This document shows positions 15,432-17,115 of a DNA stretch of 34,657 nucleotides, piece after piece. The DNA lies in assembly GCF_013004595.1 (NCBI RefSeq), contig NZ_JABEMC010000004.1, positions 248,001 to 282,657 of the forward strand, read 5' to 3'. The DNA comes from Brevibacterium luteolum (lineage in GTDB: Bacteria > Actinomycetota > Actinomycetes > Actinomycetales > Brevibacteriaceae). The stretch's first letter is position 1. The number at the start of each line of letters is the position of its first letter. Under the pieces are notes generated by a model. It was not told the origin of the DNA. It saw only the letters and a list, made by a program, of their open reading frames with translations, and did not search any database. Both the position numbers and the translations under genes were made by a program.

Positions 15432-17098
15432 CAGACGCTTTGCCGGTCGAGTGCTGCGCGCACGAGACCGGAGAACAGCGGGTGGGCCTCTGTCGGCCGG
15501 GACCGCAGCTCCGGGTGGGCCTGCGTGGCGACGTAGTACGGGTGGACGTCGGCGGGCAGTTCGACGAACTCGACGAGCTGCTGGTTCGGCGAGGTGCCCG
15601 AGATCACGAGCCCGGCGTCAGTGAGCTGCTCGCGGTAGGCGTTGTTGACCTCATAGCGGTGGCGGTGGCGCTCGGAGATCTCGTCAGTGCCGTAGACACC
15701 GGCGACGATGCTGCCCGGCAGCAGGTCGGCACTGTACAGGCCCAGGCGCATGGTGCCGCCGAGGTCGCCTTCACCGTCGACGATGTCGAGCTGTTCGGCC
15801 ATCGTGGCGATGACCGGCGCCGAGGTGTCGGGCTCGAATTCCGTTGATGACGCCTCGTCGATGCCGGCGACGTTGCGTGCGTATTCGACGACCATGCACT
15901 GCATGCCCAGGCACAGGCCAAGCGTCGGGATGCCGTTCTCGCGGGCGTAGCGCAGCGCCCCGAGCTTGCCTTCGATGCCGCGGATGCCGAAGCCGCCGGG
16001 CACGCAGATCGCGTCGAGGCCGGCGAGGTGCTCGGCGGCGCCTTCAGGGGTTTCACACGAGTCGGAGGCAATCCAGTGGATGTTGACCTTGGCGTCTTCG
16101 GCGAATCCGCCGTGGCGCAGCGCCTCCGTCACCGACAGGTAGGCATCAGGCAGGTCGATGTACTTGCCGACCAGGCCGATCTCGACTTCGTGACGCGGGT
16201 TGTGCACGCGTTCGAGCACCCAGTCCCACTGGTCCCAGTCGACGTCGCGGAAGGGCATGTTGAGGCGGCGGATGACGTAGACGTCGAGGCCGCCATCGTG
16301 CAGGACCTTCGGGATGTCGTAGATGGACCGGGCGTCGACGCAGGAGACGACGGCTTCGAAGTCGACGTCGCAGGCCGAGCCGATCTTCGCGCGGATCGAA
16401 TCCGGCAGCTCCCGATCGGAGCGCAGCACGATCGCATCAGGCTGGATGCCGATCGAGCGCAGGGCTGCCACCGAGTGCTGGGTCGGCTTGGTCTTGAGCT
16501 CACCCGAGGGCCCGAGGTAGGGCACGAGGGAGACGTGGATGAAGAAGCAGTTCTCGCGGCCGACGTCGTGGCGGACCTGGCGGGCGGCTTCGAGGAACGG
16601 CAGCGATTCGATGTCGCCGACGGTGCCGCCGACCTCGGTGATGATGACGTCCGGAGCCTCACCGTCGGTGCGCTCGGCCTGGGACCGCATCCGCAGCTTG
16701 ATCTCATCGGTGATGTGCGGGATCACCTGAACGGTGTCACCGAGGTAGGCGCCGCGGCGCTCCTTGGCGATGACCGAGGAGTAGATCTGCCCGGTAGTGA
16801 CATTGGCGCTGGCGTCGAGGTCGGTGCCGAGGAAGCGCTCGTAGTGGCCGATGTCGAGGTCGGTCTCTGCGCCGTCGTTGGTGACGAACACCTCACCGTG
16901 CTGGAAGGGGTTCATCGTGCCCGGGTCGACGTTGAGGTAGGGGTCGAGCTTCTGCATCGCGACTGTGAGCCCGCGCTGTGCGAGCAGATGTCCCAGCGAT
17001 GATGCTGTCAGTCCCTTACCGAGGGAAGATGCCACACCCCCGGTGACGAAGATGTGCCGGGTTGTGTTCTGTCCGCTTGTTCGCAATCGATTCACCAC
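15431..17098 (-). CDS. pyrG: CTP synthase
   Basis: [27 protein letters not shown], glutaminase GLCLGMQ and HPE. Start placed at GTG 17098, downstream of the extended -10. Confidence 0.97.
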
Positions 17099-17115
17099 GG
17101 AATTGAATTCTATCA
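17099..17115 (-). promoter_or_regulatory. pyrG extended -10 promoter and start-site region
   Basis: Minus strand reads TG-A-TAGAAT-TCAATTCC-GTG; -10 hexamer at 17107-17112; no SD before the GTG. Confidence 0.7.

Follow-up and report, generated by a model that had tools for sequence, protein, structure and literature searches.

The promoter of pyrG, the gene for CTP synthase, is almost unchanged across the class and probably lets RNA polymerase gauge CTP through the position at which transcription starts. We consider it likely that the start site is selected between CTP and GTP in the manner of pyrC, and that the selection is read out here by the length of the leader, often with the aid of a hairpin. 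The gene was studied in the window, that is, the whole stretch of 34,657 nucleotides of Brevibacterium luteolum DNA that was analysed, and this copy is the sole pyrG match in its genome. The proposal builds on the observed layout of the sequence and its conservation, on complementarity and covariation in homologs, and on one homolog with a start mapped at G9.

In the proposed mechanism, pyrG would be driven by its own promoter of the housekeeping type, in which the two geometrically preferred starting positions after the -10 hexamer, 7 and 8, are both C, and position 9 is the first beyond position 6 to hold a purine. At CTP levels that are high relative to GTP, the polymerase would start at C7 (perhaps also at 6 or 8), and when CTP is scarce it would start at G9. 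In leaderless lineages, the window included, the G9 RNA would open with GUG and enter leaderless translation. The RNA started at C7 would carry two extra bases with no Shine-Dalgarno (SD) motif, and be translated less, partly, in many species, through a hairpin that the CC would close over the start codon. Streptomyces, mycobacteria, corynebacteria, Micromonospora and others are leadered lineages; there the CC would lengthen a helix so that it reaches the first two G's of the SD, as in E. coli pyrC. The outcome would be a protein-free feedback of CTP on CTP synthase, exerted at the level of translation.

The pyrG promoter in the window

The features of the pyrG region are as follows.

17126..17151, minus strand: 11-bp GC-rich hairpin without a U tract, between the upstream stop codon and the pyrG promoter (-25.5 kcal/mol, z -4.07, 0/200 shuffles)
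17114..17115, minus strand: TG of an extended -10 element, read from the sequence (among 173 homologs with the motif, 79% have the T and 89% the G)
17107..17112, minus strand: -10 hexamer TAGAAT (TANNNT), read from the sequence (position conserved in homologs)
17101..17106, minus strand: six-base spacer T1 C2 A3 A4 T5 T6 (position 6 a pyrimidine in 99% of homologs)
17099..17100, minus strand: C7 (17100) and C8 (17099), with C7 as the putative high-CTP start and both as the 5' extension (invariant in all motif-bearing loci)
17096..17098, minus strand: GTG with G9 (17098) as its first base, the proposed low-CTP start, which would give a leaderless mRNA (the homologous G is the mapped transcription start in C. 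glutamicum)
17093..17095, minus strand: second in-frame GTG, an alternative start codon (found in 40/95 leaderless homologs)
17057..17076, minus strand: early coding bases GCGGA (17076-17072) and CGG (17059-17057), for which weak pairing is possible with a 5' end started at C7 or T6 (fold z about -0.4)
15431..17098, minus strand: pyrG, CTP synthase, 555 aa (open frame; NCBIfam PRK05380 and TIGR00337 above cut-off)
13732..15431, minus strand: Nudix-type gene (14694-15431) and xerD (13732-14694), downstream of pyrG, each overlapping the preceding stop codon

The promoter reads TG (17115-17114), a single A at 17113, TAGAAT, six bases, CC, and G9 as the first base of a GTG, exactly as a first-pass annotation of this DNA had described it on the minus strand; after G9 the sequence continues TG GTG AAT. 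No SD is present between the -10 and the GTG of pyrG in the window, which bears out a further statement of that annotation, and the in-frame GTG lies at a plausible distance from the -10, as in a leaderless gene. The layout also corresponds to that of pyrC, in that positions 6-8 downstream of the -10 are pyrimidines and the first purine stands at position 9. Because a second in-frame GTG is present, the start of pyrG is placed at 17098 or 17095. A longer reading frame with its start at 17128 was rejected; this start lies upstream of the -10 and is unconserved, the frame being broken by a stop codon in a homologous locus (L017). A generic scan of the window for sigma-70 promoters and terminators did not call the pyrG promoter, because the scanner demands a -35.

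The upstream gene ends at a stop codon at 17156. The hairpin at 17126..17151 was not called by the terminator scan and is a possible terminator that would insulate the pyrG promoter. The interval between steA and pyrG (17156-24372, minus strand) contains genes for a MurJ-like flippase and a GT4-like glycosyltransferase, two genes without an NCBIfam match, and another unassigned gene. On the other side, pyrG, the Nudix-type gene and xerD are probably carried on one transcript; PMC3890552 gives cg1606-cg1607-cg1608 as a single operon in C. glutamicum. If pyrG is controlled at translation, transcription of the Nudix and xerD genes downstream would go on.

The spacing was compared with the background of the window's genome, in which the distances from TANNNT to ATG or GTG were counted for the 2375 genes of a rough gene caller of our own. 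Spacers of 6 nt (221) and 7 nt (134) prevail over those of 8 nt (28) and other lengths (5-23). With 355 leaderless genes at 6-7 nt against 28 at 8 nt, positions 7 and 8 are the preferred starts in this genome. The first-pass annotation had noted spacers of 6-7 nt for most other leaderless candidates in the window, and this holds genome-wide, but the few cases in the window itself comprise two of 6 nt, one of 3 and one other of 8. Three of the 28 spacers of 8 nt end in CC, and only that of pyrG ends in a pyrimidine followed by CC. Since CC in front of a leaderless start is common (48/221 at 6 nt and 20/134 at 7 nt, 68/355 together), the single pyrG locus is not beyond chance; it is by its conservation across relatives that the promoter layout of the window is confirmed as a real feature.

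A C at -1 is found in 231 of the 355 leaderless genes of the genome, and C at -1 with a pyrimidine at +2 is described in PMC4633059 as a general start-site preference, so C8 and T10 are explicable without a switch. This generic preference speaks for a start fixed at G9, an explanation that we regard as unlikely, in which the pyrimidine run would force initiation at position 9 and set a moderate promoter strength, pyrG would be a plain leaderless gene, and the helix of the leadered relatives (bases 9-12) would be a constant damper. A fixed start leaves unexplained, however, why C7 is invariant and the 8-nt spacing exact in both architectures.

A CTP regulon extending over the genome was rejected, as the pattern -10/N5/YCC/purine occurs 25 times at the pyrG spacing versus 21-42 times at other spacings. 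The anti-SD complement that was searched for is present in 0/25 genes of the window's genome with this pattern at the pyrG spacing. At this chance-level count, the pattern also stands upstream of genes at G000:C17:172378 (minus strand) and G000:C12:275460 (minus strand), which we take to be carD-like and dcd-like; it probably has no meaning there.

Conservation of the promoter among pyrG loci

Loci were scored for the motif TANNNT-N6-CC-purine over the 270 nt that precede the pyrG core. It is present in 43/43 genomes of the class (38 matches among 41 related genomes and five more of the class), in 110/120 among the loci listed by a GTDB scan (at least 120 loci), and in 39/40 held-out genomes across families of the class, where the exception reads CATACT-N6-CC-G. 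The check on conservation of -10-N6-CC in Actinomycetota that the first-pass annotation had proposed thus came out in its favour. The query of the GTDB scan was a pattern of the coding region and blind to the promoter. In four of its ten misses the 220-nt flank truncates the locus, with CCGTGG still visible; the titles of four others name Verrucomicrobia, Opitutaceae, Puniceicoccaceae and Planctomycetota, and for the last two none is shown. An even draw over the class gave 60 matches, 40 of which supplied the held-out genomes; omitted were the own genome, five used before, two unpublished, three truncated and nine additional members of families already represented. No conclusion depends on unpublished genomes. 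In other classes, the motif occurs in 20/60 pyrG loci (67 loci taken of 100 matches, less one duplicate and six without an anchor). Alternative spacer lengths give at most seven matches per set, and 18 pyrG loci gave 0 matches in Rfam at E <= 1. Kin among the pyrG loci are not independent observations.

Within the 173 motif-bearing loci, G makes up 94% and A 6% of the bases at position 9; at position 10, T accounts for 94% and G for 1%, and the pyrimidine at position 6 is C in 70% and T in 29%. The frequent C at position 6 would suit a very improbable explanation, in which, at high CTP, C is added reiteratively at C6-C7-C8, giving a longer 5' end and less translation, so that slippage itself does the sensing; the extra C's could pair with G-rich SD runs. 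The T6 of the remaining homologs, including the window, leaves only CC for such slippage, and at the CCC initiation region of E. coli pyrG it amounts to 10.1% according to PMC12709180.

The 173 loci comprise 95 leaderless, 71 leadered and seven other forms, one locus (L027) having been reassigned by hand from leadered to leaderless. Judged by record titles, leaderless and leadered forms both occur within the mycobacterial, pseudonocardial and micromonosporal groups, with contrasts of Nocardia and Mycobacterium, Amycolatopsis and Actinophytocola, and Allorhizocola and Micromonospora; this suggests repeated transitions, as read from titles and not from a tree. Three loci that keep the motif have a start codon 2-3 nt past G9 (L178, L179 and L211, with GAG TTG, GA GTG and GTA GTG) and are intermediates between the two forms. 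A broader proposal, to which we give somewhat less than an even chance, is that CTP is gauged throughout Actinomycetota by a single pyrG promoter of ancient origin, the output of which has been rewired several times, the anti-SD helix giving way to a leader-length switch and the GUG of the helix arm becoming the start codon.

Other designs were observed outside the class. Five loci from a family of another class (L156, L159, L161, L164 and L189) are without the motif; runs resembling ACTTCCCCC open their pyrG leaders, in which a G run that matches them is also present, and they possibly represent a different CTP sensor. In six loci of another family (L152, L154, L168, L186, L188 and L197), the -10 and six bases are followed by A7 C8 C9 and almost immediately by an SD, which is a different design with a very short leader. 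Two near-leaderless loci of another class (L195 and L200) have a 5' CCCGUC that pairs with GACGGG or GAUGGG and leaves the AUG as a three-base loop.

As controls, def and ychF were scored in the same 41 genomes (def, 26 loci scored of 27 fetched; ychF, 28 of 30). The combination of 8 nt and CC is found at def in the window's genome, yet in only 3/26 def loci overall. At ychF the spacer measures 8 nt in 23/28 loci and 9 nt in 5/28; 19/28 have 8 nt with CC, and the remainder have 9 nt, TC or CT. That ychF retains a similar layout favours a start fixed at G9, and because it keeps its long pyrimidine-ended spacer though unrelated to pyrimidines, conservation within one order weighs less. On the other hand, 9 nt, TC and CT are tolerated by ychF and not by pyrG, the layout of which is stricter and conserved across both architectures. 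The ychF gene is itself of the leaderless type, with a long conserved spacer ending in two pyrimidines before the GTG (L262-L291; own copy L233:149). PMC8138138 reports that E. coli YchF restrains the translation of leaderless mRNA, and autoregulation or NTP-dependent start choice at ychF may be worth a look. One relative, G006 (C3, C34), has five ychF matches, four of them of equal score, which is probably an assembly artefact.

Predicted pairing of the 5' end with the SD and over the start codon

Leadered promoters are located approximately 27-130 nt before a TTG, GTG or ATG start, and the reverse complement of their 5' end overlaps the SD, typically as CCGTGG with CCACGG-GAG. Pairing to the SD region is possible for positions 6-12 in, respectively, 70, 71, 71, 68, 66, 65 and 60 of the 71 leadered loci and in 25, 26, 26, 26, 24, 25 and 21 of 26 held-out ones; shifted registers pair far worse in the 71 loci. 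Changes on both sides of the helix are found at position 6 (C-G in 61, T-A in 6), position 10 (T-A in 62, A-T in 3) and position 11 (G-C in 59, C-G in 5). Over 14 distinct arm types, 32/42 cells pair versus 24.8 ± 1.8 after shuffling, where 1/5000 reached 32. The pairs of C7 and C8 carry no covariation because they are invariant and anchored on the G run of the SD; the covariation information is confined to positions 6 and 9-12, and the T6-A change belongs essentially to one lineage. Wholly re-spelled hairpins that end on the SD are found in five loci of other classes (L153, L165, L166, L192 and L201).

Complementarity and covariation both indicate that an RNA started at C7 would hide the SD in the leadered homologs. 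The 5' bases upstream of G9 that complement the SD are meaningful only if they are sometimes transcribed, i.e., from starts at C7, and this complementarity constitutes the strongest argument for start-site selection. A start fixed at G9 gives no account of complementarity that reaches position 6 (70/71, with the T-A/C-G change), nor of a helix register that ends exactly on the G's of the SD. By equilibrium folding, the C7 and G9 RNAs of short leaders differ by 2.6-4.5 kcal/mol in the opening of the SD (L037, L067, L124, L153, L165, L166, L192 and L201). In the long leaders of Streptomyces, the median difference is 0.12 kcal/mol, with more than 1 in 23/72, and this small predicted switch is in line with a fixed start; in the held-out leadered loci the median is 0.92 kcal/mol, with more than 1 in 10/26. 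No conserved leader peptide was found in the leadered forms, in which the codon at base 9 falls in all three frames (17, 20 and 19).

CTP synthase is activated allosterically by GTP, which would fit an explanation that we rate as scarcely probable, in which sensing of the initiating NTP sets the amount of transcript (e.g., according to GTP or growth rate) with no change of start site or translation. Promoters controlled through their initiating NTP form a known class, as described in PMC3113569. Such control leaves the conserved pairing, whether to the SD or across the start codon, without a function, and it has no need of C at positions 7-8.

In the 95 leaderless loci, base 9 opens an in-frame GTG (85) or ATG (10). 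Because 39 of the 95 offer no other in-frame start ahead of the conserved FxTGG motif, the codon at base 9 is taken as the start, in agreement with the first-pass annotation, which had named G9 as the first base of the likely start codon. The addition of CC raises the opening energy of the first 12 nt by a median of 1.29 kcal/mol in 87 distinct leaderless loci; in a control with 355 other leaderless genes, CC adds a median of 0.17 kcal/mol and AA approximately 0. The mean effect of CC in pyrG is 1.66 kcal/mol versus 0.64-0.97 in eight synonymous resamplings. The downstream complement tracks the start codon, with CATGG in 6/10 ATG starters versus 1/77 GTG starters and CACGG in 23/77 GTG starters versus 0/10 ATG starters; the CATGG of the six ATG starters always encodes His-Gly in frame and represents few independent lineages. 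Perfect 5-bp complements are in modest excess (29/87 versus 20.4 ± 3.5, with a maximum of 29 in 500 resamplings). In the held-out leaderless loci, the median is 0.29 kcal/mol, with more than 1 in 4/11.

The earlier statement that control operates with no hairpin was too strong, in that leadered homologs have the anti-SD helix and many leaderless ones the CC hairpin; in the window, pairing of the CC is weak (a gain of 1.3 kcal/mol) and the fold is not better than that of shuffled sequences. A hairpin over the start codon may help in many species, with leader length alone carrying the switch in others, in line with the proposal of the first-pass annotation.

Mapped starts and comparison with known systems

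The only published start that was placed on the sequence is that of C. glutamicum pyrG (cg1606), and it lies at G9 alone. Table S1 of PMC3890552 calls TATGCT, the homologous hexamer, the -10 of this gene, and the start is the G located immediately after TATGCT, a six-base spacer and CC, at a distance of 8, with no second start listed. The mapped start therefore confirms the promoter and G9 but not C7, and it is what a fixed start at G9 predicts. The reported starts of S. coelicolor and M. smegmatis pyrG, one each (tabulated at 1898445 and 3811745), lie 125 nt and 61 nt before the annotated start (PMC4895711, PMC6448022), within the range expected from related loci, and may correspond to C7 or to G9. 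The accessible parts of the P. acnes, B. breve and S. lividans supplements (PMC3848588, PMC5746004, PMC8079986) contained no row for a pyrG start. For actinomycetes, we infer initiation at C7, its dependence on CTP, the translational output and the size of the effect. In the cg1606 leader, the anti-SD arm CCACGGAGG precedes an upstream GTG (Table S3 of PMC3890552), which, by eye, opens approximately 25 codons; these end ahead of another SD, which is followed by the annotated ATG. In C. glutamicum, the switch may act through this small upstream ORF.

The available text of PMC4681348, PMC3113569, PMC7039003 and PMC5730371 contains nothing on a -10/N6/CC/purine element at pyrG. The literature covered, mostly open-access and with part of the supplements, gave no account of pyrG regulation in Actinomycetota and reported neither this element nor any switching of mRNAs from leaderless to short-leader form under the control of NTPs. 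If the broader proposal of one ancient gauge is correct, the metabolite sensor would be two bases long and need neither a protein nor a riboswitch, and the first nucleotide chosen by RNA polymerase would decide whether the mRNA is leaderless, making leaderless initiation a regulated event. The start-site switch proposed for pyrG would show that leaderless mRNAs, often assumed to be without 5' control, can be regulated through the choice of start site. Its reach would be the whole phylum, including Streptomyces, corynebacteria, mycobacteria and bifidobacteria, and it would offer a two-base handle for deregulating the CTP supply of industrial strains. The surprise is limited because the sensing principle is already known from enteric pyrC. 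Taken as a whole, the interpretation given by the first-pass annotation is partly supported.

Among the closest known systems are pyrC (and pyrD) of E. coli and Salmonella, where nucleotide-sensitive selection of the start site is coupled to translational control. E. coli pyrC starts at C7 when CTP is high and at G9 when CTP is low. PMC4491880 describes its translation as governed by the shift of the start site at high CTP. The likeness to actinobacterial pyrG is one of geometry, and the comparison drawn in the first-pass annotation proves exact on the sequence: in E. coli pyrC, the hexamer TATCCT is followed by six bases, the last of them a pyrimidine, and then by C7 C8 G9, and CCGG and CCGGAG form a pair. 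Leadered actinomycete pyrG resembles it further in that C7 and C8 pair with the first G's of the SD, but this pairing spans 27-130 nt, in contrast to the short local hairpin of pyrC. The target here is CTP synthase instead of dihydroorotase, in the phylum Actinomycetota. The pyrG of the window has neither a leader nor an SD, and its output would be leaderless versus short-leader initiation; as there is no SD to hide, it is at most pyrC-like and a different arrangement.

The promoter of E. coli pyrG (L292:425-445) has the actinobacterial geometry as well, with TATACT, six bases and C7 C8 G9, and differs from that of the window by a leader of approximately 50 nt. This shared geometry hints at a very old element. 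B. subtilis pyrG, which is controlled by CTP-sensitive reiterative transcription and attenuation, has in common the gene, the ligand and sensing by RNA polymerase at initiation. It needs, however, a G tract, located at the start (PMC12709180), and a leader terminator, whereas the pyrG of the window has T after G9 and no leader. Neither a G tract nor a terminator/antiterminator leader is found in the pyrG studied here, and the distinction from B. subtilis made by the first-pass annotation is therefore upheld.

Leaderless mRNAs of Actinomycetota and Caulobacter resemble pyrG in having a 5' ATG or GTG after TANNNT, and they are affected by structure and by extra bases at the 5' end (PMC4633059, PMC8459731), as would be the case for pyrG. 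In mycobacteria, a 5' ATG or GTG is reported as both required and sufficient for the translation of leaderless mRNAs (PMC4633059), and in Caulobacter leaderless translation declines approximately 2-fold per extra 5' base (PMC8459731), which supports the earlier claim that extra 5' bases lower it. The usual leaderless spacer is 6-7 nt, as in the genome of the window, and pyrG stands apart from these mRNAs by its spacer of 8 nt.
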